From the NCBI GenBank assembly GCA_003506435.1, contig DOAQ01000043.1, positions 18,737 through 82,736 on the forward strand: a stretch of DNA of 64,000 nucleotides, read 5' to 3'. The notes under the pieces were generated by a model. The model was not told the origin of the DNA. It made no database searches and saw only the letters and a program-made list of their open reading frames with translations. A program made the translations under genes and the position numbers. The stretch is from Prolixibacteraceae bacterium (GTDB lineage: Bacteria > Bacteroidota > Bacteroidia > Bacteroidales > Prolixibacteraceae). Positions 1,013 to 37,842 of the stretch are shown here, one piece after another. Numbering within the stretch: the first letter of the stretch is position 1; each line of letters starts with the position of its first letter.

Positions 1013-2791
1013 ATGGAGAAAAGTTATTTAAAAAGATCTTCAAAATTCAACAACTTTCCTGTTGTTGAAATAAAGACGGAGGGATGGAAAGTTGAAAACG
1101 AATGGGAAGCTATTTGTGCCCGATTGAACAAAGAAATATCGCTCATAAAAGGAAAGAAAAAACGGGTGGTCATTGAAACCTATCAGGGAGTGATCCATGA
1201 GGAATTAATTACTAATTTGAAAAATGGATTGGATCATACTCATTTTATTCATGCTGAAGAATACATGTTGCCTGAAGATGAGATCAAAAAATTGGTGTTC
1301 CCGGATGTGACCAACGACCGGATTTTTGGTTTTTTGACACGTCTGACCATGGGTGCCTTTTTCGATACTGAAAAGGTAAAAACTATTCAAAATAAAATAG
1401 GAGCAGTAGAAGAAGGAATAATTGTAATTTACGGAAGCGGCGCTGCTCTGTTGTGCCCGGAACCTGATCTGCTGGTCTATGCTGATATGGCTCGTTGGGA
1501 GATACAACTTCGGATGCGTCAGCATTTGGTCGATAACCTGGGAGTTAAAAACCGCGAAACCGCCGACTGGATGTTACTCTACAAGCAAGGGTTCTTTGTT
1601 GACTGGCGTGTGTGTGACCGCTTGAAAAAGCAACTATTCGATCAATGGGATTTTGTGCTGGATACCAATAAAGCCGGTCGACCCAAATTGGTAGAGGGAA
1701 AGGCGGTTCTCGAAGGATTGAAAATCGCAAGTCAGCGACCATTTAGTGTGGTTCCGTTTTTTGATCCCGGGCCATGGGGCGGGCAGTGGATGAAAGAAGT
1801 ATGTAATCTGGACCCTGAATCACCAAACTATGCGTGGTGTTTCAACTGTGTTCCCGAAGAAAATAGTTTGTTGCTGAAATTTGGTGAAGATGTGGTTGAA
1901 ATTCCTTCTGTCAACTTGGTATTTCGCCATCCGCGCGAATTGCTTGGCGATCCGGTTCACGGACGTTTTGGTGATGAATTTCCCATCCGTTTCGACTTCC
2001 TCGATACAATGCAAGGCGGCCATCTGAGTTTGCAGGTACATCCGCTTACCGAATACATTCAGGAAAAATTTGGCATGCATTATACGCAGGACGAAAGTTA
2101 TTACATGATGGACGCAGAAGATGATGCAATCGTCTATCTCGGACTGAAAGAAGGAGTCTGCCCTACTGATATGATGCGTGAGCTGGAAGAAGCCCAGGCC
2201 GGTGGCCCTTCGTTCGATGCGGAAAAGCATGTGCAAACCTGGCCGGTAAAGAAACATGATCATGTGCTGATTCCTGCCGGTACGGTACATTGTTCAGGGA
2301 AAAATAGTATGGTACTCGAAATCAGTGCAACCCCGTATATTTTTACCTTTAAACTGTGGGACTGGGGACGGCTTGGAATGGATGGAAAACCCCGTCCGAT
2401 CAATATCGAACACGGAAAAAATGTCATTCAATGGGATCGTACAACAGAATGGACACGAAACAATCTGGTGAGCCGGATTGAAAAAATTGCAGAAGGCGAT
2501 GGTTGGTTGGAAGAACGCACCGGGCTGCACGAACGCGAATTTATTGAAACCCGGCGGCATTGGTTCACGAAAAAAACAGAACACCATACACGGGGAGGAG
2601 TTCATGTTATTTGCCTGGTTGAAGGTGACGAAGTGATTGTTGAAAGCCCTTCAAGTGCTTTTGACCCATTTGTGGTGCATTATGCTGAAGTATTTATTGT
2701 ACCGGCTTCGGTTGGGGAATATACCATTCGTCCGTATGGCGCAGGCGCAGGTCAAAAATGTGCAACACTGAGAGGACTTGTGAGATTTTAA
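1013..2791 (+). CDS. Class I mannose-6-phosphate isomerase-like cupin protein with a long N-terminal domain
   Basis: 592 aa. It carries 'GGHLSLQVHP', 'QDESYYM' and 'VLIPAGTVHCSG', which resemble type I PMI metal and active-site motifs. Confidence 0.6.
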   Translation: MEKSYLKRSSKFNNFPVVEIKTEGWKVENEWEAICARLNKEISLIKGKKKRVVIETYQGVIHEELITNLKNGLDHTHFIHAEEYMLPEDEIKKLVFPDVTNDRIFGFLTRLTMGAFFDTEKVKTIQNKIGAVEEGIIVIYGSGAALLCPEPDLLVYADMARWEIQLRMRQHLVDNLGVKNRETADWMLLYKQGFFVDWRVCDRLKKQLFDQWDFVLDTNKAGRPKLVEGKAVLEGLKIASQRPFSVVPFFDPGPWGGQWMKEVCNLDPESPNYAWCFNCVPEENSLLLKFGEDVVEIPSVNLVFRHPRELLGDPVHGRFGDEFPIRFDFLDTMQGGHLSLQVHPLTEYIQEKFGMHYTQDESYYMMDAEDDAIVYLGLKEGVCPTDMMRELEEAQAGGPSFDAEKHVQTWPVKKHDHVLIPAGTVHCSGKNSMVLEISATPYIFTFKLWDWGRLGMDGKPRPINIEHGKNVIQWDRTTEWTRNNLVSRIEKIAEGDGWLEERTGLHEREFIETRRHWFTKKTEHHTRGGVHVICLVEGDEVIVESPSSAFDPFVVHYAEVFIVPASVGEYTIRPYGAGAGQKCATLRGLVRF

Positions 2792-2799
2792 ACCTTTGT

Positions 2800-3582
2800 A
2801 TGATGGAATTTAATCCCGGATTTGATATAAAACCGACTGTAAACCCGATGGGGTTTCTTTATGGAAATGATGTATTTGGACCGCAGGTAGAGAACCGCAG
2901 GTTGGACGATATTCGCAAAAGTTTGCGCAATCCCGGCTGTGAAGGGCCGGAAACAGTGTATTCCATCGCAATGGATGTAGGAAAAAAGGAACATTTGAAA
3001 CGACTGGAAAAATTACACCTGTTGTTCGGGGTCGTTACTTATGCTGCCGGAAGGCTGGGCGATGAGCCGGTGCGTAGTCAGGGACACATTCATAAAGTGT
3101 CGCCGCTGAGCGGCTGGTCAACTCCAGAGGTTTACGAAATATGGTCGGGCAGGGCTATCATTTATATGCAGGAAACGGCAAAAGATAACCCTGGACACTG
3201 TTTTGCTGTGGAAGCTGGTCCGGGCGAAGTAGTTGTGGTGCCTCCGTATTGGGCACATGTCACCGTTAGCGCTGATGCGGAGCAACCGCTTACCTTTGGC
3301 GCATGGTGCGATCGCGCTTATGGGTTTCAGTACGATGATGTACGGGCGCACAACGGTCTAGCCTGGTTTCCGATAATTCAGGAAGACGGAACAATCGGGT
3401 GGTTACAAAATCCAGCATACAATGAGGGGGCGTTGCAAATTAAATCACCGTCTGATTATTCATTGCTGGGTATCGAAAAAGGAAAACCCATTTATACCCA
3501 GTTTGAAGAAGATGAATCGCGTTTTTTGTTTGTTCCGCATCCGGCCTTAAAAAGAACGGAGTGGAAGAGTTTTATTCCGTGA
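2800..3582 (+). CDS. Cupin-type glucose-6-phosphate isomerase family protein
   Basis: I start it at the ATG at 2800, just after the upstream stop. 'SQGHIHK...EVYEIWSG...VVVPPYWAH' is a cupin His/Glu metal-site pattern typical of archaeal-type PGI. Confidence 0.55.
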   Translation: MMEFNPGFDIKPTVNPMGFLYGNDVFGPQVENRRLDDIRKSLRNPGCEGPETVYSIAMDVGKKEHLKRLEKLHLLFGVVTYAAGRLGDEPVRSQGHIHKVSPLSGWSTPEVYEIWSGRAIIYMQETAKDNPGHCFAVEAGPGEVVVVPPYWAHVTVSADAEQPLTFGAWCDRAYGFQYDDVRAHNGLAWFPIIQEDGTIGWLQNPAYNEGALQIKSPSDYSLLGIEKGKPIYTQFEEDESRFLFVPHPALKRTEWKSFIP

Positions 3583-3788
3583 CAGTTTTTCACTGCCGCA
3601 ACTTTCTTCGGTTTCCCTTCCTTTTTTAGGTGATGTGGTTCCGGTGCAACAGGGACGGGTTGGTTTGTAAAATTTGCATTACCCAACAAAAAACTCCCTG
3701 AAAATCTTTGAATTATACCGGAATAGTTTTATTTTTGCCGCGCATTTTATAAATATAATGTCTAACTTATTAATTTTTTGATTATTAC

Positions 3789-5768
3789 ATGACAGAATTA
3801 CAAAACGAGAACCTTGAACCAAAGGAAGAACTCGAAACACAGGAAACCGCTCTGGTAACCGAAGAAGTTGTTGCTGAAGAAGCAGAAGTAAAAGAAGAAG
3901 CAGTTGCTGAAGAAGTAGCTGTAGATGAGGTTGAAGAAGAAGCTGCTGAAGAGGTAGTTGCTGAAAAACCTAAAAAAGCAGGCAAAGCAAAAAAAACAGT
4001 TGAAGTTGCCGCAGAATTTGACTGGAGCGCATTCGAAAAAGGGGATACCACCAGCGCTGCACACACCGAACTCGAAAACCTTTACAACAAAACCCTGACA
4101 ACTGTTCAGGAAAAAGAAGTTGTTAACGGAACCGTAATTTCGATGAACAAACGCGAAGTTGTTATCGACATCGGTTACAAATCGGACGGTATTGTTAGTT
4201 TGAACGAATTCCGCTACAATCCGGAACTGAAAGTGGGCGACAAAGTAGAAATCTACATTGAAAGCCTTGAAGACATTAAAGGACAGATGATTCTTTCGCA
4301 CAAAAAAGCACGTGCAATGCAATCGTGGGATCGCGTTAACCTGGCCCTCGACAACGACGAAATCATTAAAGGGTACATCAAATGCCGCACAAAAGGTGGT
4401 ATGATTGTCGATGTATTCGGAATTGAAGCGTTCTTGCCTGGTTCTCAGATCGACGTGAAACCGATCCGCGACTATGATGTATTTGTTGGAAAAACCATGG
4501 AATTCAAAGTGGTTAAAATCAACCATGAATTCCGTAACGTAGTTGTTTCGCATAAAGCGCTCATCGAAGCCGAACTGGAACAACAGAAAAAAGACATCAT
4601 TTCGAAACTCGAAAAAGGACAGGTACTTGAAGGTACTGTTAAAAATATTACTTCGTACGGTGTATTCATCGACCTTGGCGGTGTTGACGGATTGATCCAC
4701 ATCACCGACTTAAGCTGGGGCCGTATTTCGCATCCGAACGAAATCGTTGAATTAGACCAGAAACTGAACGTGGTTATCCTCGACTTCGATGATGACAAAA
4801 AACGTATCGCCCTTGGTTTGAAACAACTTACTCCTCACCCATGGGATAATTTAAGCGCCGGACTGAAAGTTGGCGACAGCGTGAAAGGTAAAGTGGTTGT
4901 TATGGCCGACTACGGTGCATTTGTTGAAATTGCTCCCGGAGTAGAAGGTTTAATCCACGTTTCTGAAATGAGCTGGTCGCAGCACCTGCGCAGCGCACAG
5001 GACTTCCTGAAAGTGGGAGAAGAAGTAGAAGCACAGATTCTTACATTGGACCGCGACGAGCGTAAAATGTCGTTGGGTATCAAACAACTTCGTCAGGATC
5101 CATGGGGAGACATCGACAACTTGTTTGGCCTTGGAAGCAAACACAAAGCAACGGTTCGCAACTTCACCAACTTTGGTGTATTTGTTGAAATTCAGGAAGG
5201 TGTTGACGGCCTGATCCATATTTCGGATTTGAGCTGGACGAAAAAAATCAAACATCCGTCAGAATTTACTTCAATCGGAGCTGAAATTGATGTAGTTGTT
5301 CTCGATATCGATAAAGAAAACCGTCGTTTGAGCCTTGGGCACAAACAGTTGGAAGAAAATCCATGGGATGTATTCGAAACTATTTTCTCGGTTGATTCAA
5401 TTCATGAAGGAACAGTAGTTGAGTTGTTCGACAAAGGCGCAACCATTGCTCTTCCATACGGTGTTGAAGGTTTTGCAACTCCGCGTCACCTTGTGAAAGA
5501 AGACGGATCGCAGGCTCAACTGGAAGAAAAATTGGATTTCAAAGTAATCGAATTCTCGAAAGCAGCAAAACGCATCATCCTTTCACACTCACGTGTGTTC
5601 GAAGATGAGAAAAAATCGGAAGAAGCTGCTGCCAAAAAAGTTCAGGCAAAAACAACCAAGAAAGTTGTAAAACAAGTGAAAGAAAACACGATGGAAAAAA
5701 CAACTCTTGGCGATATTTCTGAATTAGCAGCTCTGAAATCGCAGATGGAAGCTGACGAGAAAAAGTAA
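3789..5768 (+). CDS. rpsA: 30S ribosomal protein S1 with an acidic low-complexity N-terminal extension
   Basis: 659 aa with six S1/OB repeats ('G.V....V...G.FV.....EGL.H.SE.SW' recurs). The first ~80 aa are an E/V/A-rich extension. Confidence 0.95.
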   Translation: MTELQNENLEPKEELETQETALVTEEVVAEEAEVKEEAVAEEVAVDEVEEEAAEEVVAEKPKKAGKAKKTVEVAAEFDWSAFEKGDTTSAAHTELENLYNKTLTTVQEKEVVNGTVISMNKREVVIDIGYKSDGIVSLNEFRYNPELKVGDKVEIYIESLEDIKGQMILSHKKARAMQSWDRVNLALDNDEIIKGYIKCRTKGGMIVDVFGIEAFLPGSQIDVKPIRDYDVFVGKTMEFKVVKINHEFRNVVVSHKALIEAELEQQKKDIISKLEKGQVLEGTVKNITSYGVFIDLGGVDGLIHITDLSWGRISHPNEIVELDQKLNVVILDFDDDKKRIALGLKQLTPHPWDNLSAGLKVGDSVKGKVVVMADYGAFVEIAPGVEGLIHVSEMSWSQHLRSAQDFLKVGEEVEAQILTLDRDERKMSLGIKQLRQDPWGDIDNLFGLGSKHKATVRNFTNFGVFVEIQEGVDGLIHISDLSWTKKIKHPSEFTSIGAEIDVVVLDIDKENRRLSLGHKQLEENPWDVFETIFSVDSIHEGTVVELFDKGATIALPYGVEGFATPRHLVKEDGSQAQLEEKLDFKVIEFSKAAKRIILSHSRVFEDEKKSEEAAAKKVQAKTTKKVVKQVKENTMEKTTLGDISELAALKSQMEADEKK

Positions 5769-26161: not shown

Positions 26162-26461
26162 TTATCGAATGTTGAATGTAAGTTCCTTGCCTAAAGCACG
26201 AAGAACTTTAATAATTGTTTGAAGATTGACGTTTGGTGTGTTGGCTTCAATTCTTGATACCTGAGATTTAGTTACTCCAATTTTCTCTCCAAATTTTTCT
26301 TGAGTTAGATTTTGTTCTTTACGAATACATTTGATTGTGGCACCCAGCATTTCCACTTTTAACTCCAATTCATATGCATCGCGTTCGGGGGATCCCTTTT
26401 TACCAAGGAGATGATCCTTGGCTTCATCCATAGTCATTGGCTGTGTAAGTGATTTTCTCAT
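26162..26461 (-). CDS. XRE-family HTH antitoxin (HigA-like)
   Basis: 99 aa. 'IRKEQNLTQEKFGEKIGVTKSQVSRIE' is a classic XRE HTH. It lies downstream of a RelE/ParE-like toxin gene. Confidence 0.75.
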   Translation of the reverse strand: MRKSLTQPMTMDEAKDHLLGKKGSPERDAYELELKVEMLGATIKCIRKEQNLTQEKFGEKIGVTKSQVSRIEANTPNVNLQTIIKVLRALGKELTFNIR

Positions 26462-26584
26462 AGCAATTGTTTTTTTTAATGATTGTTATTTTATTGGCAA
26501 ACAACCTTGCCCTAATGAAAGTCTTTATTCTTTTTGTATATTCAGTTATCTGATTGTGTTTTTAAATCGAATAAAATCAAATAT

Positions 26585-26917
26585 TTATATTCCCCCAGAG
26601 AGATAATTATCTCTTATATTTTTCCCTTTTTTTATTTCCTTCTTCGGAGTTTTAACTGTCTTTTTTATAAATCCATGTGTCGAAATAACTAAGGCTCTTT
26701 GTTCCCTACTCCAGAATGCCAGCAATCGGTAATTTTGATTTTCGTATTTTGTTCTAAACTCCCACATTTCTCCACTCAGCTTTTTGAATAACTCCGGGTC
26801 TCTCGTCATTTGTGCTTTCTCAATGTTTTTTAAAATCTTCTCCTTTACAGCTCTTTCTAAATCTTCCAGAAATTCAATGGCTTCAGGCATAAATAAGACT
26901 TCAAAATTCTTTTTCAT
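26585..26917 (-). CDS. RelE/ParE-superfamily toxin (HigB / phage Gp49-like)
   Basis: 110 aa. '...LSGEMWEFRTKYENQNYRLLAFW...ALVISTHGFIKKTVKTPKKEI' matches the Gp49/HigB-type toxin pattern. The toxin-first order is typical of HigBA. Confidence 0.7.
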   Translation of the reverse strand: MKKNFEVLFMPEAIEFLEDLERAVKEKILKNIEKAQMTRDPELFKKLSGEMWEFRTKYENQNYRLLAFWSREQRALVISTHGFIKKTVKTPKKEIKKGKNIRDNYLSGGI

Positions 26918-27078
26918 TTTCTATATATTTAAGAAACATCTCAAAGATAGAAAATGTTGCATTATTTGTAAACATTTCTATTAAAAAGTTGCGCAATATA
27001 GAAACATTTCTCTAGTTATATAATAGTTTAACATGATTAGATGAATCCTATTAACAAAAATTAACGTGGCATACCACT

Positions 27079-27111
27079 ATAAAAAAGAAAAAGCCCCACA
27101 TTTTGTGAGGC
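27079..27111 (-). terminator. Intrinsic terminator after the cold-shock gene (minus strand)
   Basis: On the minus strand, GCCTCACAAAATGTGGGGC forms a 7-bp stem and is followed by TTTTTCTTTTTTAT. Confidence 0.6.
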
Positions 27112-27143
27112 TGCATTGAATTCTGTATATGAATACTTATTTT

Positions 27144-27332
27144 TTACGATAGTTTTACATTTACGGCATTCAATCCTTTTCTTCCTTCAGCAAGTTCATA
27201 AGTAACTTCGTCTCCATCCTTAACTTTATCGATAAGTCCGGAAACATGAACGAAATACTCTTCGCCTGATTGATCTTTAATAAAACCAAAACCTTTCGAC
27301 TCGTTGAAGAATTTTACTGTACCTGTTTTCAT
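27144..27332 (-). CDS. Cold-shock protein (CspA family)
   Basis: 62 aa. 'GTVKFFNESKGFGFI' (RNP1) and 'YFVHVSGL' (RNP2-like). Confidence 0.9.
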   Translation of the reverse strand: MKTGTVKFFNESKGFGFIKDQSGEEYFVHVSGLIDKVKDGDEVTYELAEGRKGLNAVNVKLS

Positions 27333-27415
27333 AATAAATTAAAAATATTTGATAATCATGTAAATATAGGGAAAAATGATATTCGACAAATCAAATAGGT
27401 AAAAAAAAGAATTTT

Positions 27416-28732
27416 TTAAACGTTTAACAGGTTGTCATTTAAGGCTTGCAATGTTTGTTTTTTTAGCGAAGTAGGTACCAGAATCGAAATATTGTGACGG
27501 CTGCCTCCGTACGAAATCATCCGGATGGGAATACCTTCCAGTGCGTTAAATATTTTGGCTGCAAAGCCTTTTTCCTCGGCAATCAAATCGCCAACAATAC
27601 ACACAATCGACTGATCGGTGTCGATTTCCACTTCACCATATTCCTGAAGTTCTCTTTTTATGTCCTCCAGATTACGTGTATCATCAATTGTCAGTGAAAC
27701 AGCAACTTCCGATGTTGAAACCATGTCGATAGGAGTTTTGAAAAACTCAAAAATTTCAAAAATGCTTTTCATGAAACCGTACGCCATCAACATGCGGTAT
27801 GAACGGATTTTTATAGCGGTGATGCCATCTTTGGCGGCAACGGCCTTGATGCCGCTTTCGCTTGAATTCGAAGCAATCAGTGTTCCGCTGTCGCTCGGGT
27901 TCATCGTATTTTTCAGACGGACCGGGATATTTTGCAATTTGGCTGGTAAAACAGTTAGCGGGTGCAGAATTTTTGCCCCGAAATAAGCCAGCTCGGCTGC
28001 TTCGTCGAACGACAGTTGTTCAATTTTTCGGGTTTTTTCTACAAAACGGGGGTCGTTGTTATGGAATCCGTCAATGTCGGTCCAAATCTGTACTTCTTCC
28101 GATTCGATGGCCGCCCCGATCAATGTTGCGGTGTAGTCGCTTCCGCCGCGTTGCAGGTTGTCGATTTCATCGTTGGCATTACGGCAGATAAATCCCTGCG
28201 TGATGTAATAATCGGCTTCACCGGCTTTTTCAATTACTCCGGGAATGGCTTCTTTTGTATAATATAAATCGGCAGCTTTATCAGCATCAATACGCATAAA
28301 ATCGAGGGCAGGCAAATAAACCGCTTTGTGCCCGTTTTCTTTCATCAGAATGACAAATAAAGCCGTTGAAATCAATTCGCCCTGGGCCAAAATAGTCTTT
28401 TCCCCGATTTCTTTAAAATCTCCTGAAGTAAACGATCGAATGGCGGTGAAACTTTCTTTCACCACTTTTATTCCTTCTATCTTACTTTCTGCTTTTTCAA
28501 AAAGATTGGCAACTACTTTTATGTATTTTTCTTCCAACTGGTTGATTACCATCCGGGCCGAGTCTTTATTCTTCTTATACAAATAATTCGAAATTTCAAC
28601 CAGGGAATTGGTCGTTCCCGACATCGCCGAGAGAACAACAACTTTTTGTTCTCCATCTGTTATCAGTTCCATTACAGCCCGCATGTTTTCGGTGCTTCCG
28701 ACTGATGTGCCTCCAAATTTTAAAACTTTCAT
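27416..28732 (-). CDS. lysC: Aspartate kinase
   Basis: 438 aa. 'MKVLKFGGTSVGS', 'VVVLSAMSGTTN', 'RGGSDYTA' and C-terminal ACT repeats. Confidence 0.85.
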   Translation of the reverse strand: MKVLKFGGTSVGSTENMRAVMELITDGEQKVVVLSAMSGTTNSLVEISNYLYKKNKDSARMVINQLEEKYIKVVANLFEKAESKIEGIKVVKESFTAIRSFTSGDFKEIGEKTILAQGELISTALFVILMKENGHKAVYLPALDFMRIDADKAADLYYTKEAIPGVIEKAGEADYYITQGFICRNANDEIDNLQRGGSDYTATLIGAAIESEEVQIWTDIDGFHNNDPRFVEKTRKIEQLSFDEAAELAYFGAKILHPLTVLPAKLQNIPVRLKNTMNPSDSGTLIASNSSESGIKAVAAKDGITAIKIRSYRMLMAYGFMKSIFEIFEFFKTPIDMVSTSEVAVSLTIDDTRNLEDIKRELQEYGEVEIDTDQSIVCIVGDLIAEEKGFAAKIFNALEGIPIRMISYGGSRHNISILVPTSLKKQTLQALNDNLLNV

Positions 28733-31582: not shown

Positions 31583-31945
31583 ATTTAGTCACAGTTGACA
31601 GTCACAGTTTTCAGTGAACAGCCGTGGGGGAGTTGCGAGTCATGAGTCATGAGTTTCGAGTATCCAAATTCTGCCTTCTGTAATCGTAGCTGTTGTCTTA
31701 CTACTTACGACTAAATTGAGTTTCAGATTTTAATCTAACTCTACTATCTGGTAATTTTTCCTATGTGTCCTACTGTGTCTATTGTGGTTTTCTGAACAGC
31801 CGGATTAAACACAAAGACGCAAAGACACGAAGGAAAAAGTTTCTTTCTTCAGCATCCAGCTTTCTTCTGTCAGTCTTATCTCCTTCCGTCATTCCGGCGT
31901 AGGCCGAAATCTCATCGCACTGAGCCATACCAAAAAATGGTGGTT
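31583..31945. repeat. Direct repeat, copy 1 (~363 bp), bracketing the MNT/HEPN pair
   Basis: Near-identical to 32910-33330. The shared string is ATTTAG..CAGTTGACAGTCACAGTTTTCAGTGAACAGCCGTGGG.GAGTTGCGAGTCATGAGTCATGAGTTTCGAGTATCC...CACAAAGACGCAAAGAC...CATTCCGG.G.AGGCCG.AATCTCATCGCAC. Confidence 0.9.
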
Positions 31946-32062: not shown

Positions 32063-32468
32063 TTATTGAGTTTTTAAAATCTTGCCAATTTTTTCTTCGA
32101 CAAGTTCTTTCATCTCAAGTGCAATATTTTTGTATTCGATTGTTTCTTCTGCCGATGGGACGTACATAATCTCCCGGATATCTTGAATCAACTCCAAAAT
32201 CACTTAATACTTTTGGGTCAATGGACATAAAATCAGGGTCAATATCTGCACATTCCGACAGCAAATATTCGATATTATGAGTCTTCTTGATTTCAATTCC
32301 ATTAGAAATGAGAAAAGCTTTTAAAAATTTCTCAACAGCTTGTTGGCAGTGAAAGCAGACTGAAGCATTTGCAATTATTTCAAATTCAGTTAATTTTTCG
32401 ATAACTAATAAATCCTCGTTCGCTTTGGTCAGCCATTGTTTGATGAAATTAACTGTTTCATTGTTCAT
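32063..32468 (-). pseudogene. HEPN-domain protein of a MNT/HEPN pair, apparently frameshifted near its 3' end
   Basis: The ORF 32115-32468 ends '...SRYPGDYVRPIGRRNNRIQKYCT*'. Shifting the frame by +1 at about nt 32162 reads 'YVPSAEETIEYKNIALEMKELVEEKIGKILKTQ*' with a stop at 32063-32065. That is a typical HEPN C-terminal helix. Confidence 0.6.
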
Positions 32469-32785
32469 ATTGCGACCCCTTCTTTCATTACTTGTCTAAG
32501 AATGTGTCCGGTAATTTCCTTTTTTATTCGAATCTCTTCTTCACTCTGAATCAATATATCAGCAGGGATTTTATATTTTGCCAATTCCTTCCTCAATTGA
32601 GATTTCAGGAATCTTTTTTTGCGGATGTCAATAGTATCTCTGGTAATTATAAGAAAGTCATAATCGCTTTCATTTGAATTGTCATTTCGCGCACGGGAGC
32701 CAAAAAGAAGCACTTTGCAATCAGGGAATAAGCTGATTGCAGAGTTTCGTATTATAGAAAGCGCTTCCTTGTTATTATTAACCAT
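32465..32785 (-). CDS. Nucleotidyltransferase-domain protein (MNT-type partner of HEPN)
   Basis: 106 aa. 'LFGSRARNDNSNESDYDFLII' carries the GSxxxG...DxD polbeta-NTase motif. Its stop overlaps the HEPN start by 4 nt (ATGA). Confidence 0.8.
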   Translation of the reverse strand: MVNNNKEALSIIRNSAISLFPDCKVLLFGSRARNDNSNESDYDFLIITRDTIDIRKKRFLKSQLRKELAKYKIPADILIQSEEEIRIKKEITGHILRQVMKEGVAI

Positions 32786-32909
32786 TTTTTTATTTCAAAA
32801 TTACTCAATTTTTTGAAATGTGTATTCTTCTCCATTATTGCCTGTAATGGTGGTTGCGATTTGCAAATTACGATCAGAACAGCCGAACTCGCGCAAAGAC
32901 GCGAAGATA

Positions 32910-33330
32910 TTTAGTTGCAGTTGACAGTCACAGTTTTCAGTGAACAGCCGTGGGAGAGTTGCGAGTCATGAGTCATGAGTTTCGAGTATCCAAATTCTGC
33001 CTTCTGTTATCGTAGCTGTTGTCTTACTACTTACGACTAAATTGAGTTTCAGATTTTAATCTAACTTTACTATCTGGTAATTTTTATCCTATGTGTCCTA
33101 CTGTGTCTATTGTGGTTAATGAACAGCCGGATTAAACACAAAGACGCAAAGACGCAAAGGAAAAAATTTCTTCCATCAGCATCCTGTTTTCTTCCGTCAT
33201 TTCCGTTTAGCGTTCCTGTTTTCTTTCGCCATTCCTATTTTCCTTTTGTCATTCCTATCTTTCTTCCGTCATTCCGGTGCAGGCCGGAATCTCATCGCAC
33301 AGCGCCATACCCGAAATGGGTGAGGTGGTT
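32910..33330. repeat. Direct repeat, copy 2 (~421 bp, with an extra ~58 bp pyrimidine-rich insert)
   Basis: It aligns base-for-base with 31583-31945 (offset 1327 at the left end) apart from a few substitutions and an insert around 33190-33250. Confidence 0.9.
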
Positions 33331-33339
33331 ATCTCGTCA

Positions 33340-33890
33340 CAGACCAGAAATTGTGTACCCTTCGTTACCGCAAGCTCAAAGAAGGAGGAGAGGTGAGTTT
33401 CGACGAACGCATCCGAAAACTCAAAGAAGTTACCCAAGGCTGGCTCAATTACTTCCGAATGGCAAGTATTCATGGCAAACTGAAGGAACTGGACGGATGG
33501 CTTCGAAACCGGCTGAGGTACTGCATTTGGCATCACTGGAGGACCGACTGTTAAGAATTTGTCCGGTGGACAAATTTAAGGAGGGGCCAGGTTGCAGGGG
33601 AGGGAACCGAAAAAGGAAAAACCTGATTCAATTGGGAGTTGATCCGGAACATGCTTATCAATGGAGCAGAACCCGGATGGGTGGATGGGCAACGGCTCAA
33701 AGTCCGATTTTGGTTACTACCATTACCTTGGAACGTCTGCGTAAAAGAGGGTATGAGGCGTTGCTTACTTATTACGAGAAAATTGCCCCACATCTTAATG
33801 AACCGCTGTATACGAGAACCGTACGTACAGTGGTGTGAGAGGTGCTCCGGTGGGCTTAACCGCTCACCGGCCATCTACTCGATTATGGGC
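33340..33890 (+). mobile_element. 5'-truncated group II intron remnant (maturase X-domain/C-terminus fragments plus domain V/VI-like RNA)
   Basis: Frame a reads 'ERIRKLKEVTQGWLNYFRMASIHGKLKELDGWLRNRLRYCIWHHW', the GW.NYF maturase hallmark. Frame b reads 'KNLIQLGVDPEHAYQWSRTRMGGWATAQSPILVTTITLERLRKRGY'. A domain V-like hairpin CCGCTGTATACGAGAACCGTACGTACAGTGG sits at 33803-33833. No RT domain is present, and the ORF is frame-shifted and interrupted. Confidence 0.7.
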
Positions 33891-33898
33891 TGGCTTTA

Positions 33899-34306
33899 TT
33901 ATTTTTTGTCTATCAGGAACATGACTAAAATTGTGATTGCAATAAATATCCCATAAAAGGGAATTAGTGTTTTTGATAAAATCCCAGAAATCCATGTTCT
34001 TTTTCCCGAATTATAAGAACTTGCATTCATGTTATAGTCAATTGCATTTTCATTTTTTGCACTTACCTCGTTGTATAATTCTCTGTATTGTCTCTCTTGA
34101 GAAATATAAAAACCATCAAGAACCCAAAAAACAGGTATGGCAATATATGAAATCAATACATAATTTAGGTTGGAATCATTTGCAGCTAAAGCAAATAAGG
34201 CAGAAACTAAAGTAACAGCCCATCCCTTTAACAAGAATGAATTAGAGTTCATTCTTGTTATGACATTTTGAATAAACTCCAGGTGTTTTCTTTTATTTTC
34301 ATCCAT
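33899..34306 (-). CDS. Small multi-pass membrane protein, last gene of the TIR operon (candidate effector)
   Basis: 135 aa. It has an N-terminal amphipathic helix, then a tight TM hairpin ('WAVTLVSALFALAA' - NDSNLNY - 'VLISYIAIPVFWVLDGFYI'), a 'SQERQYRELYNEV' helix and a C-terminal TM ('LIPFYGIFIAITILVMFLI'). It starts 5 nt after the upstream gene. Confidence 0.6.
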   Translation of the reverse strand: MDENKRKHLEFIQNVITRMNSNSFLLKGWAVTLVSALFALAANDSNLNYVLISYIAIPVFWVLDGFYISQERQYRELYNEVSAKNENAIDYNMNASSYNSGKRTWISGILSKTLIPFYGIFIAITILVMFLIDKK

Positions 34307-34311
34307 ATTTT

Positions 34312-35115
34312 CTAATTGATTATTTCATTAATTGGAAATGTTATTTCATATAATTTATCTAATGCGTCTTCTGCTTTTGTAAATTTACCACTATTATACC
34401 ATTCAACTAGGTGTTCTGTATCTATATCCTTTAAATGCTTTGTGTTTGCATCATATTTGACTTTTAATCCTTTTTCTAACACTTCCAACTTCCCTTCACT
34501 AGAGAACGTTCTAGTTTCAGTAATTGTGCTACGTAGTCTTGCTGGTAAATTCATACGAACAGTTTCAGAAAAGGCAATCTCTGAATAAATCCAAGGTGAT
34601 TCTGTTTTGTCCTTATTTTCAAAGGATTGAATTGAATTTGGAGTATCGTAAAATATTAAACATTCAGTTTTGTCTATCATTGTATTCAAGGCTGTTGAAA
34701 GCATCATGTGAACATGACTTGTAGATACTAAAACTTTATTGTAATAATATATTTTATTTTTCTCATCCATCCAACTGTATTGATTATCCAAGATTTGGAT
34801 AAGGTCATTGCCATAACCCCAGACGCAGGAATCAATAAAGGATATAATATTAAATTTCTCATTTAACCAGCCAGCTAATGCAATTACTTCGTCTTCATCC
34901 TTATGTGAGTGTGAAATAAAAACATTAGCGTGTATTTCAGGAAACCATGAATTGACTATTTTACTTGCGTCTAACGATTTGTCACTTAAGAAAAACTCGT
35001 CAAGAGTTTTCTTTACGGTTCTTTTTTGTTGATTAAATATAGTTTGCCCTACATTTTTAAAATGACTAAAATTTTCATCAAAATCAACTTTACTCAATTT
35101 GTACCCTTTAAACAT
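34312..35115 (-). CDS. TIR-like domain protein (divergent, with insertions)
   Basis: 267 aa. 'NVFISHSHKDEDEVIALAGWL' looks like a TIR betaA-loop, followed by 'CLIFYDTPNS...SPWIYSEIAF', an SxWxxxE-type motif. Confidence 0.6.
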   Translation of the reverse strand: MFKGYKLSKVDFDENFSHFKNVGQTIFNQQKRTVKKTLDEFFLSDKSLDASKIVNSWFPEIHANVFISHSHKDEDEVIALAGWLNEKFNIISFIDSCVWGYGNDLIQILDNQYSWMDEKNKIYYYNKVLVSTSHVHMMLSTALNTMIDKTECLIFYDTPNSIQSFENKDKTESPWIYSEIAFSETVRMNLPARLRSTITETRTFSSEGKLEVLEKGLKVKYDANTKHLKDIDTEHLVEWYNSGKFTKAEDALDKLYEITFPINEIIN

Positions 35116-35136
35116 TTTATTTTTCTATTTTTAATA

Positions 35137-35706
35137 TTATGATAGTAGCCATTGTTCGAAAGAAATAGACTCTCCATCAGTTTTTTTTACATGAATATCA
35201 TTCAACGATAATGAATCCAGATTTTCGTTTTCAATCACCATTTCTGGATATAATTGAAGGTATTCATATCCAGACCAGTTTCCTGATTTGCTTTGAATAG
35301 GTAATATTGCTAGTCTGCTTTCCGATTTAAGTATGTCAGCAATTCCAATTTCCCAATTACACCATTTTGAACGTAATCCATGGTAAGTAGCTAGAAATAA
35401 GAAATGGTTACATTCCCGAATTTTATTTTTTATATTATCAGCGGTTATTTTATTCGTAGTTTCAGGAAGTGATTTATCCATCCAATCTACATATAGTTCT
35501 GCATCCAGTTTAGAAAATAATAAGCTTATTTTACTCACTATTGTTTTATCTAAATGGCTATGAGATGGAAATATAACTTTGCCGTTTGGTAAATCTTGTC
35601 CTTCTTTTCGTTTGCGCTTTACAAATTCTTGGATATCCTCTTTGCCACGGAATTTGGTTTCTTCCTTTAAAAATTGGTTTAAATTATTTTGGGATAGTCT
35701 GTCCAT
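35137..35706 (-). CDS. TIR-domain protein (paralog 2)
   Basis: 189 aa. 'VIFPSHSHLD', 'LYVDWMDKSLPETTNKITADNIKNKIRECNHFLFLAT' and 'SKWCNWEIG'. It is clearly paralogous to 35711-36262. Confidence 0.75.
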   Translation of the reverse strand: MDRLSQNNLNQFLKEETKFRGKEDIQEFVKRKRKEGQDLPNGKVIFPSHSHLDKTIVSKISLLFSKLDAELYVDWMDKSLPETTNKITADNIKNKIRECNHFLFLATYHGLRSKWCNWEIGIADILKSESRLAILPIQSKSGNWSGYEYLQLYPEMVIENENLDSLSLNDIHVKKTDGESISFEQWLLS

Positions 35707-35710
35707 TGTT

Positions 35711-36262
35711 TTAGTTTTTTAGCCATTCTGCGAGAGAAATTTTTCTACCTTCAAATTCGACATAATACGTTCCTGTTGTATAAGTGTAGGCAGAAGTTAT
35801 AATTGGATAAATTGCTAGATATTCACTTCCACTGAAGTTACCTCCCTCGGAATTGGTTATTGGCATAACTGCTATATCCTTGAAGTATTTTTGTGAGTCT
35901 CCATAGCCAAGTTCCCAGTTGCACCATTTTGACTGAATAGCTTGTTCCGTTGCAAGAAGAACAAATTTATCGCATTGCCTAATCTTTTCCTTTATTTTCT
36001 TTGCTGTTGTGCCATTAGTATTTTTAGGCATTTCAGAGTCTTGCCAATCTACATAAACACTAATACCCAACTTTTTGAAAAGTGCAATTGCTTGTTCTAT
36101 AATTTCTGTTTCATCGTGTTTGTGAGAAAGAAAAACCGAAACTTCAAAAGAGTATTTTTTCCTTTCTCTTGTTGTCTTAGCTTCTGAGAAAATTTTTATT
36201 GAATCAGTTATATTCTCACTTTTTGCTTTTGATAATAATTGTCTTGAGATTAGTTTTTCCAT
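35711..36262 (-). CDS. TIR-domain protein (paralog 1)
   Basis: 183 aa. 'VSVFLSHKHDE', 'VYVDWQDSEMPKNTNGTTAKKIKEKIRQCDKFVLLAT' and 'SKWCNWELG', the TIR SxWCxxEL motif. Confidence 0.75.
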   Translation of the reverse strand: MEKLISRQLLSKAKSENITDSIKIFSEAKTTRERKKYSFEVSVFLSHKHDETEIIEQAIALFKKLGISVYVDWQDSEMPKNTNGTTAKKIKEKIRQCDKFVLLATEQAIQSKWCNWELGYGDSQKYFKDIAVMPITNSEGGNFSGSEYLAIYPIITSAYTYTTGTYYVEFEGRKISLAEWLKN

Positions 36263-36571
36263 TGTTTTTTTATTTTAAGCTTGCCCATAACGAAGGCGTA
36301 TAATCACCTGCGTTTTTTTCTTTGTCATTATTAAAAGGTGCGTTTATTCCTCTTAAATGGTGGAATAAAAACAGGTTTCATCGTTCCTCTAAATACAATT
36401 CTCAATCAGCCTCTTAAAATTAGAACTATTTTTTGATACATGGTTCAAATAATCTGGATTTCAGCCTGTTTCTTTTATCGTTCAGATTTTTATCAACCAC
36501 AAAGCCGCAAAGTCTTTCTTCCGGAGAAATATCCTTTGTTTCGCGGCTTCGTGGTTTAGTAATCGCCGTGA

Positions 36572-37324: not shown

Positions 37325-37506
37325 ATATTTAAAAGTTAGTAAATAGTCAGGAGCATTGTCGTGCGAAGGTTAGTGCCAATACATTTCCGGTTTTCTTCCT
37401 TTGGGGCCTCAAAGTCCCCGGGAAAAAGCAGAGTATTCCGGTTAATTACAGGTTTCCTATTTCGAGAATACCGATGAAAACACTCGTCGGCAGCCTTTTT
37501 TGATTT

Positions 37507-37842
37507 TGGGAAAAGGTCCAAATCAACCGTCGGGAAGCTTTTCCTTTTTGGGAAAACGTCCAAACTGATCGTCGGGAACCTTTTTCCTTTTGGGAAAACG
37601 TCCAAACTGATCGTCGGGAACCTTTTCCTTTTTGGGAAAACGTCCAATCCGATCATCGGGAAGCTTTTCCTTTTTGGGAAAACGTCCAATCCGATCATCG
37701 GGAACCTTTTCCTTTTTGGGAAAACGTCCAATCCGATCGTCGGGAACCTTTTTCCTTTTGGGAAAACGTCCAAATCAATCGTCGGGAAGCTTTTCCTTTT
37801 TAGGAAAATCGTCAAAAACAACCGGAGACAAGCTTTTCCCTT
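37507..37842. repeat. Tandem repeat, 8 units of exactly 42 bp
   Basis: Units begin at 37507, 37549, 37591, 37633, 37675, 37717, 37759 and 37801. The consensus is TGGGAAAACGTCCAAWYYGATCRTCGGGAASCTTTTCCTTTT. The last unit is degenerate, and degenerate flanks extend to ~37465 and ~37850. Confidence 0.9.

Follow-up and report, generated by a model that had tools for sequence, protein, structure and literature searches.

The window analyzed here, a 64,000-nt stretch of a Bacteroidota (Prolixibacteraceae) genome, contains four packed minus-strand genes at 33899-36262, and the question they raise is whether three TIR-domain proteins and a small membrane protein make up an uncharacterised defense system, as the earlier note had proposed, or a member of a family that is already defined. 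From its homologs, we judge the operon to be a real anti-phage defense locus that belongs to a recently defined, experimentally validated family and not to an uncharacterised system. In particular, it is probably (roughly 0.85) an anti-phage system of Thoeris type V, in which three ThsB sensors are combined with a single ThsF effector. The features of the locus are as follows.

36263..36571, minus strand: intergenic upstream region of 309 nt (GC 0.35), the presumed operon promoter region and the sole sizeable gap 5' of the four genes
35711..36262, minus strand: thsB-1 (TIR1, 183 aa), short-form TIR protein, sensor and synthase of the signal, with the predicted catalytic glutamate E117
35137..35706, minus strand: thsB-2 (TIR2, 189 aa), paralog of thsB-1 with the predicted catalytic glutamate E119
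34312..35115, minus strand: thsB-3 (TIR3, 267 aa), long-form ThsB extended by helices at its N-terminus and also extended at its C-terminus; predicted catalytic glutamate E179
33899..34306, minus strand: thsF (135 aa), predicted type V Thoeris effector, a membrane protein with three helices

In type V Thoeris, TIR proteins act as the sensors and ThsF, a small membrane protein with three helices, as the effector (Yirmiya et al., bioRxiv 10.64898/2025.12.03.692087). According to that source, type V systems protect B. subtilis, the TIRs of both validated systems produce 3'cADPR upon infection, 3'cADPR is toxic only when the type V system is present, and the Tad1 sponge lowers the defense; 3'cADPR on its own had no toxic effect with the type V variant of Bacillus sp. 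1NLA3E. ThsF is described there as a protein with three transmembrane helices, modeled by AF3 as a ring with positive pockets, and DUF2270 is the label used for the type V effector. The same source reports that Bacteroidota are enriched for type V, in line with the origin of the window, and the DefenseFinder rows of its Table S3 include a Thoeris_V system with ThsF and two ThsB.

The 135-aa membrane protein shares 43% identity over residues 3-129 (E 2e-38) with the product of a 141-aa gene, BtThsF, located 14 nt downstream of thsB in B. thuringiensis DAR 81934, and a family HMM made from the relatives of the window ThsF scores BtThsF at E 2.2e-55. It also matches all four PADLOC PDC-M50A models, with PDLC04686 as the best (E 6.8e-56, residues 1-131). 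PDC-M50 (PADLOC-DB v2.0.0) is itself only a computational candidate, and our search of the literature on PDC-M50 and 8xMP found nothing relevant. Three hydrophobic segments start near residues 24, 47 and 108, and the AF2 model (pLDDT 96.4) places helices at residues 3-44, 48-83 and 114-134. Three transmembrane helices are therefore predicted and not two, which makes the likeness to predicted 'TIR + 2TM effector' systems, drawn by the earlier note, a loose one. Foldseek found no match for this model in the PDB at E <= 0.001, and the predicted fold is one without a solved relative. NCBIfam gave nothing for ThsF. The Pfam model PF10028 (DUF2270) did not match the window ThsF at E <= 1; it likewise did not match the validated BtThsF and is hence non-discriminating with the Pfam copy used, in which 21 of 76 diverse ThsF relatives matched it, all below threshold (best 1.4e-5).

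PADLOC ThsB models recognize all three TIR proteins (E 1e-43 to 5e-76). TIR1 and TIR2, called paralogs from a shared motif that is indeed present in both, are 40% identical (E 9e-38); both pass the Pfam TIR_2 gathering score of 28 (41.5 and 30.9 bits), and their PADLOC matches are PDLC00423 (E 1.2e-55) and PDLC00436 (E 1.2e-43), respectively. TIR1 in addition matches the crystal structure of BcThsB (8btn, E 1e-14). TIR3, described beforehand as a divergent TIR-like protein, contains NVFISHSHKDEDEV and SPWIYSEI and is matched over its full length by PDLC00430 (E 4.5e-76), while its TIR_2 score of 18.6 bits lies below the gathering score. The AF2 model of TIR3 (pLDDT 80) gave no significant Foldseek match in the PDB, TIR structures appearing only with E > 0.1; because of this, it is sequence profiles and homology that identify TIR3 as a TIR protein. 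The three divergent ThsBs fall in two clades. The sole NCBIfam match, far below cutoff, linked TIR1 with ThcB4, a type III protein, and PADLOC reported weak similarity to SAVED_TIR in the TIR part only.

The glutamate that the earlier note had seen in all three TIRs is found at conserved columns as E117, E119 and E179. The Glu of the W-x-x-E motif is invariant, and E117 of TIR1 and E119 of TIR2 align with the Glu in RWVRYEI of B. cereus MSX-D12 ThsB, which we equate with the catalytic residue E85 described by Ofir et al. In 42 relatives of TIR3, neither E179 nor the FISHSH motif varies.

The closest comparison is with the type V system of B. thuringiensis DAR 81934, for which we used a ThsB that is a 100% match to the sequence of Yirmiya et al. 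To this ThsB, a 3'cADPR maker, TIR3 shows 41% identity along the whole protein (E 3e-65), and the two systems share a homologous long-form ThsB, a homologous effector (43% over the full length) with three transmembrane helices, the thsB-thsF order with tight spacing and the conserved catalytic Glu. They differ in that B. thuringiensis has one thsB whereas the operon here has three, from two clades; the host here is a member of the Prolixibacteraceae, and the identity of its signal is inferred. With the TIR domain of the validated type V ThsB of Bacillus sp. 1NLA3E, TIR1 shares 39% and TIR2 32% identity. Both fall in ThsB cluster 2612357774 of Yirmiya et al., which has type V ThsBs among its members. 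An entry that they list as 'DUF2270 - Type V', IMG 2595641543, has a TIR domain with 64% identity to TIR1. The 1NLA3E variant thus has its TIR clade in common with TIR1 and TIR2, and its effector carries the same label; it has a single ThsB, however, and its effector is reported not to be activated by 3'cADPR alone. On the effector and TIR3 identities to the B. thuringiensis proteins, the locus matches a family already defined, and the term 'uncharacterised' no longer fits it, while its reading as defense-related is supported by homology to validated type V Thoeris.

We also considered other systems. The earlier note had listed no ThsA-type partner and had set the locus apart from type I and type II Thoeris; SIR2, SLOG, Macro, STING, caspase and nuclease domains were indeed not found in the operon. 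Type I was rejected as SIR2 or SLOG was not found in the four proteins or the scanned neighbors, and type II as Pfam gave no Macro domain match in the four proteins. Type VII was rejected because SLATT, a family proposed earlier for a profile check of these proteins, was not among the Pfam matches at E <= 1. The membrane-disrupting effectors of types II (the Macro-TM protein ThsC) and VII (the SLATT protein ThsH) resemble the present case in responding to a TIR-made signal, but they use other signals (His-ADPR and canonical cADPR, respectively), and Macro and SLATT domains were not detected here. CBASS or Pycsar with a TIR effector was rejected since no CD-NTase or pyrimidine cyclase matched in the operon. 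The '3TM' category in Table S1 of Yirmiya et al. was rejected as well, its TIRs sitting in other clusters.

The gene context of ThsF-like genes was surveyed in 80 species genomes that carry one. A TIR gene lies on the same strand within 150 nt of the ThsF-like gene in 71 of them, and this TIR-ThsF adjacency is conserved across phyla. The loci contain no TIR in 8 cases, one in 45, two in 20 and three in 7, so that two or three TIR genes are present in 27 of the 80. In 12 other genomes, the gene immediately before thsF is TIR1-like. The thsB-3/thsF pair is found again elsewhere at 90% nucleotide identity, in a different context and without thsB-1 and thsB-2; the pair is the mobile core, and thsB-1 and thsB-2 are add-ons. 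The TIR3-like genes looked at on B. cereus and Priestia plasmids, by contrast, have SIR2 or Macro neighbors and not ThsF. The ThsF-like family comprises 4313 clusters at 50% identity, and conjugative plasmids from Klebsiella and E. coli carry such genes, as does a Vibrio phage-like element.

The most likely mechanism follows by homology from the validated Bacillus systems. Phage infection would activate at least one ThsB, and active ThsB would convert NAD+ to an isomer of cyclic ADP-ribose, which is most probably 3'cADPR. This molecule may then bind to positive pockets in a ring-shaped ThsF homo-oligomer; the conserved N-terminal helix on the cytoplasmic side (K5, H8, R18, K27) and the E71-R72-Q73-Y74-R75 stretch presumably make up these pockets. 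Signal-bound ThsF would disrupt the membrane and lead to a growth stop or cell death before phage progeny mature. In a two-ThsB type I system, multiple thsB genes give additive phage specificities under OR logic (Ofir et al. 2021). That type I system, B. dafuensis ThsA with TIR1 and TIR2 (Ofir et al. 2021), is similar to ours in having several divergent ThsB sensors for one effector, but its effector is the SIR2-SLOG NADase ThsA, whereas here it is a membrane protein without SIR2 or SLOG. The three ThsBs of the window, too, are most likely sensors that work in parallel, differ in phage specificity and share one common effector, giving a broader phage range.

Other ways of combining the sensors can be envisaged. 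The three-helix module of ThsF is also found as a C-terminal fusion partner of SLOG and HIT domains and of an 8xMP membrane domain, and it is conceivable, though doubtful, that ThsF integrates two structurally distinct ThsB clades, either through different ADPR-derived molecules or by their joint action, and that the module is a portable membrane output unit of several Thoeris types; if so, a single effector chassis would underlie types that are at present counted apart, namely V, XI and the putative '4TM SLOG'. It is likewise unlikely that the molecules made by the two ThsB clades differ and that ThsF needs a combination of them, as in an AND gate, or a signal other than 3'cADPR, with the TIRs interdependent and not redundant. 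Such a scheme would accommodate the 1NLA3E variant, whose ThsB is of the TIR1/TIR2 clade and which is reported not to be made toxic by 3'cADPR, as well as the frequent occurrence of TIR1-like together with TIR3-like or other ThsBs around thsF. However, the 45 single-TIR loci carry a TIR of either clade, so a single ThsB suffices as partner, the thsB-3/thsF pair recurs without the other two genes, and the TIRs of both validated type V systems are reported to make 3'cADPR.

The composition and surroundings of the operon bear on whether it is still functional. The four genes are separated by gaps of 4, 21 and 5 nt, as first described, the last of which lies between thsB-3 and thsF. The GC content of 33899-36262 is 0.310, the minimum among all 2364-nt segments of the 64 kb (mean 0.417, sd 0.029), and that of the flanking genes is 0.47-0.49, close to the earlier hand count of about 30% against about 50%. 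The neighbors are those named before, a PIF1-HRDC-HTH_40 helicase, a HEPN and nucleotidyltransferase pair and a group II intron remnant (GIIM domain, E 6.5e-14; RF00029, 39.6 bits). The defense-island reading attached to them finds weak support, since PADLOC showed toxin-antitoxin-like pieces and partial helicase matches in the vicinity and no second complete defense system. A sigma-70 scan gave 14 sites, not above the 11.6 expected from shuffled sequence, with a model ill-suited to Bacteroidota; the full TAnnTTTG motif is absent upstream of the operon, and no terminators were found at it. A low-GC island that adjoins a broken group II intron and has no recognizable promoter or terminator in such a scan could be a decaying or inactive remnant, silenced for example after horizontal acquisition. 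We consider this very unlikely, as the four ORFs are intact and of full length relative to homologs, catalytic and conserved residues are kept, and an independent MAG has the same locus at 99.6-99.8% identity with the ORFs unchanged.

Scarcely credible is the idea that the TIRs are NAD+-depleting effectors, as in CBASS, Pycsar and SPARTA, with an accessory or unrelated membrane protein: bacterial TIRs are able to act as NADase effectors, a caveat that Yirmiya et al. raise only for putative types not verified there, but cyclase, Argonaute and STING partners were not found (Pfam, PADLOC), TIR3 is homologous to a 3'cADPR-making ThsB and the membrane protein to one rendered toxic by 3'cADPR, and the membrane-protein family adjoins TIRs in 71 of the 80 genomes.

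Under the type V assignment, a locus flagged as possibly new is now filed under an existing validated family, to which it would add a Bacteroidota (Prolixibacteraceae) example with three sensors. The Pfam DUF2270 model misses type V effectors, the validated one included, and they will hence be overlooked in Pfam-based annotation; they are detectable by the PADLOC PDC-M50A models or by a dedicated ThsF profile. The size of the ThsF-like family and its carriage on plasmids and a phage-like element are relevant to surveys of resistance in phage therapy.

The earlier note had read four closely spaced minus-strand genes as an operon of three TIR proteins and a small membrane protein, and its ORF coordinates match ours exactly. 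The intergenic gaps are, in gene order, 4, 21 and 5 nt.

35711-36262, minus strand: ORF, thsB-1 (TIR1), 183 aa
35137-35706, minus strand: ORF, thsB-2 (TIR2), 189 aa
34312-35115, minus strand: ORF, thsB-3 (TIR3), 267 aa
33899-34306, minus strand: ORF, thsF, 135 aa

The GC content of the operon (0.310) is the minimum among all 2364-nt windows of the 64 kb (mean 0.417, sd 0.029), and it contrasts, as had been noticed, with that of the flanking DUF6261 (0.485) and PIF1 (0.468) genes. The proposed paralogy of TIR1 and TIR2 also holds (40% identity, E 9e-38), and the motif quoted for the pair is present in both.

Thoeris types V-XI were defined in a December 2025 preprint (Yirmiya et al., bioRxiv 10.64898/2025.12.03.692087). 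According to this preprint, type V combines ThsB, the TIR sensor and signal synthase, with a three-helix membrane protein, ThsF, labelled DUF2270 by the authors, and two Bacillus type V systems protect B. subtilis. When the ThsB sequence of B. thuringiensis DAR 81934 from its Table S1 was searched against the protein collection, we found a 100% identical protein (P0271), and the next gene on its contig, 14 nt downstream, encodes 141 aa. Because the corresponding IMG gene numbers in Table S2 of the preprint are consecutive, this gene is the type V effector (BtThsF). The window ThsF is 43% identical to this 141-aa protein over residues 3-129 (E 2e-38), and an HMM of the window protein's relatives matches BtThsF across the entire model (E 2.2e-55). 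On the ThsB side, TIR3 shares 41% identity with the validated B. thuringiensis ThsB along its full length (E 3e-65) and 43% with IMG 2515616423, an entry given as 'DUF2270 - Type V'. TIR1 shares 64% identity with the TIR domain of IMG 2595641543, also a type V entry, and 39% with the validated ThsB of Bacillus sp. 1NLA3E. The homology of both components to validated or listed type V proteins therefore gives the operon the sequence-level hallmarks of type V Thoeris, and by this homology we assign it as an additional member. The earlier observation of a real defence operon was correct and careful, but the system it called uncharacterised fits an already defined type.

The PADLOC ThsB models match TIR1 (E 1.2e-55), TIR2 (E 1.2e-43) and TIR3 (E 4.5e-76) strongly, with most or all of each protein covered. 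TIR1 (41.5 bits) and TIR2 (30.9 bits) pass the Pfam TIR_2 cutoff of 28, TIR3 stays below it at 18.6 bits, and an NCBIfam search of the operon proteins gave nothing useful. At the sequence level, TIR1 matches the BcThsB crystal structure 8btn (E 1e-14). Alignment to ThsBs of types I, III, IV, V and VII leaves just F44, S46, W113 and E117 (TIR1 numbering) as invariant residues. E117, equivalent to E119 of TIR2, shares its column with the Glu of the RWVRYEI motif in B. cereus MSX-D12 ThsB, which we take to be E85. The E85Q substitution in ThsB abolishes signal production and defence (Ofir et al.). In TIR3, E179 and the FISHSH strand show no variation among 42 relatives; the predicted TIR3 model has a pLDDT of 80, and Foldseek returned no significant match for it, with TIR structures appearing only at E > 0.1.

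The window ThsF matches the PADLOC candidate family PDC-M50A (E 6.8e-56). Its AF2 model, of very high confidence (pLDDT 96.4), comprises two long helices (3-44, 48-83), one short helix and, at 114-134, the third transmembrane helix, and none of the solved structures compared with it is alike. Across the family, R18 and D64 are invariant and K5, H8, Q13, K27, W29, W61 and E71 nearly so; the conserved basic residues are predicted to lie along the cytoplasmic N-terminal helix. This placement is consistent with the positively charged inter-protomer pockets that AF3 ring models of ThsF predict, according to the preprint (Yirmiya et al., bioRxiv 10.64898/2025.12.03.692087).

In a survey of 80 ThsF-like loci from 80 species genomes (Bacteroidota, Verrucomicrobiota, Planctomycetota, Cyanobacteria, Patescibacteria and Proteobacteria), a check that the earlier note had called for, a same-strand TIR ORF lies within 150 nt of the ThsF-like gene in 71. 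The number of TIR genes per locus is zero in 8, one in 45, two in 20 and three in 7, with split genes apparent in two of the last group. Three ThsBs per ThsF are uncommon, yet not new, and multi-ThsB type V loci are also recorded in the preprint of Yirmiya et al. (10.64898/2025.12.03.692087). In 12 other genomes, the gene immediately before thsF is TIR1-like, which makes TIR1 and TIR2 plausible partners of ThsF rather than bystanders.

The anatomy and homology of the operon are observed; for its mechanism we draw on the Bacillus work, by analogy with which ThsB would sense phage infection and make 3'cADPR, this signal would activate ThsF, and the activated ThsF would damage the membrane and abort the infection. 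With three ThsBs, the system probably senses a broader range of phages, an effect shown for two ThsBs in the type I Thoeris of B. dafuensis (Ofir et al.). According to the preprint, 3'cADPR alone gave no toxicity with the 1NLA3E type V variant (10.64898/2025.12.03.692087), whose ThsB falls in one clade with TIR1 and TIR2, so 3'cADPR is a tentative signal for these two.

A Prolixibacteraceae MAG (GCA_003524645.1) matches the window at 99.6-99.8% identity over 11 kb with the same gene order. The metagenomic contig L089 (locus at 1667-4241) shares only the thsB-3/thsF pair (90% nucleotide identity, window 33883-35122; ThsF 96% identical), which marks this pair as the mobile core. There, the place of thsB-1/thsB-2 ahead of the pair is taken by an IS110 transposase and a SIR2_2 protein of 410 aa, and L089 may be a hybrid locus in which one signal serves two effectors. 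The homologous stretch stops exactly where a degenerate group II intron remnant has its 3' end (33883), and the thsF stop codon lies 16 nt away.

33351-33551, plus strand: group II intron 3' part, GIIM maturase domain (E 6.5e-14)
33801-33883, plus strand: group II intron domain V/VI RNA, RF00029 (39.6 bits; gathering score 40)

Near the operon, the reported helicase (PIF1-HRDC-HTH_40) and HEPN/nucleotidyltransferase pair were confirmed, and PADLOC gave only partial or candidate-level matches for the operon's neighbours. A direct repeat of ~290 bp (31583-31872 and 32909-33199, 93.8% identity) flanks the nucleotidyltransferase/HEPN pair (32115-32785) and may be a duplication from insertion of this cassette or of the intron. 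Between the DUF6261 gene and the genes that follow it, a 42-bp tandem repeat (37504-37817, 7.5 copies, 90% matches) accounts for the repetitive ORFs seen on either strand. A Gp49 (HigB-like) and HTH pair (26162-26917, minus strand), located in another low-GC patch (about 0.30, 26250-27500) downstream of the aspartokinase and cold-shock genes, forms a second toxin-antitoxin-like module close to the Thoeris locus.

ThsB and ThsF-like pairs also occur beside the integrase of a 14-kb tectivirus-like element, Vibrio phage 10N.286.55.A5_PE002 (L093), and on conjugative IncF-type plasmids of Klebsiella/E. coli (141 plasmid records in total), including the Klebsiella plasmids L094 and L005, in the latter of which thsF is truncated by an IS3 element. 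In addition, some larger proteins carry the ThsF-like three-helix module at their C-terminus. The domain preceding it is SLOG (LD_cluster2) in P0168, which P0144 resembles without a Pfam match, the membrane domain 8xMP in P0124, and HIT in a Mycolicibacterium plasmid protein (L092:2099-3067) that adjoins a ThsB_TIR gene and resembles the type XI effector. This suggests a membrane output module common to several Thoeris types.

The large ThsF-like family has 1360 members in the protein collection clustered at 90% and, at the 50% identity level, 4313 clusters (E <= 1e-3). In the Pfam copy used, PF10028 (DUF2270) matched neither the window ThsF nor the validated BtThsF (L006:4773-5198), whose sole, weak Pfam match is PF24838 (8xMP; E 0.012, whole length). 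Among 76 diverse ThsF relatives, 21 matched PF10028 below threshold (best 1.4e-5) and 26 matched DUF3278. Type V membership is better judged by homology to a validated protein than by Pfam label, and annotation relying on Pfam will overlook the ThsF family.
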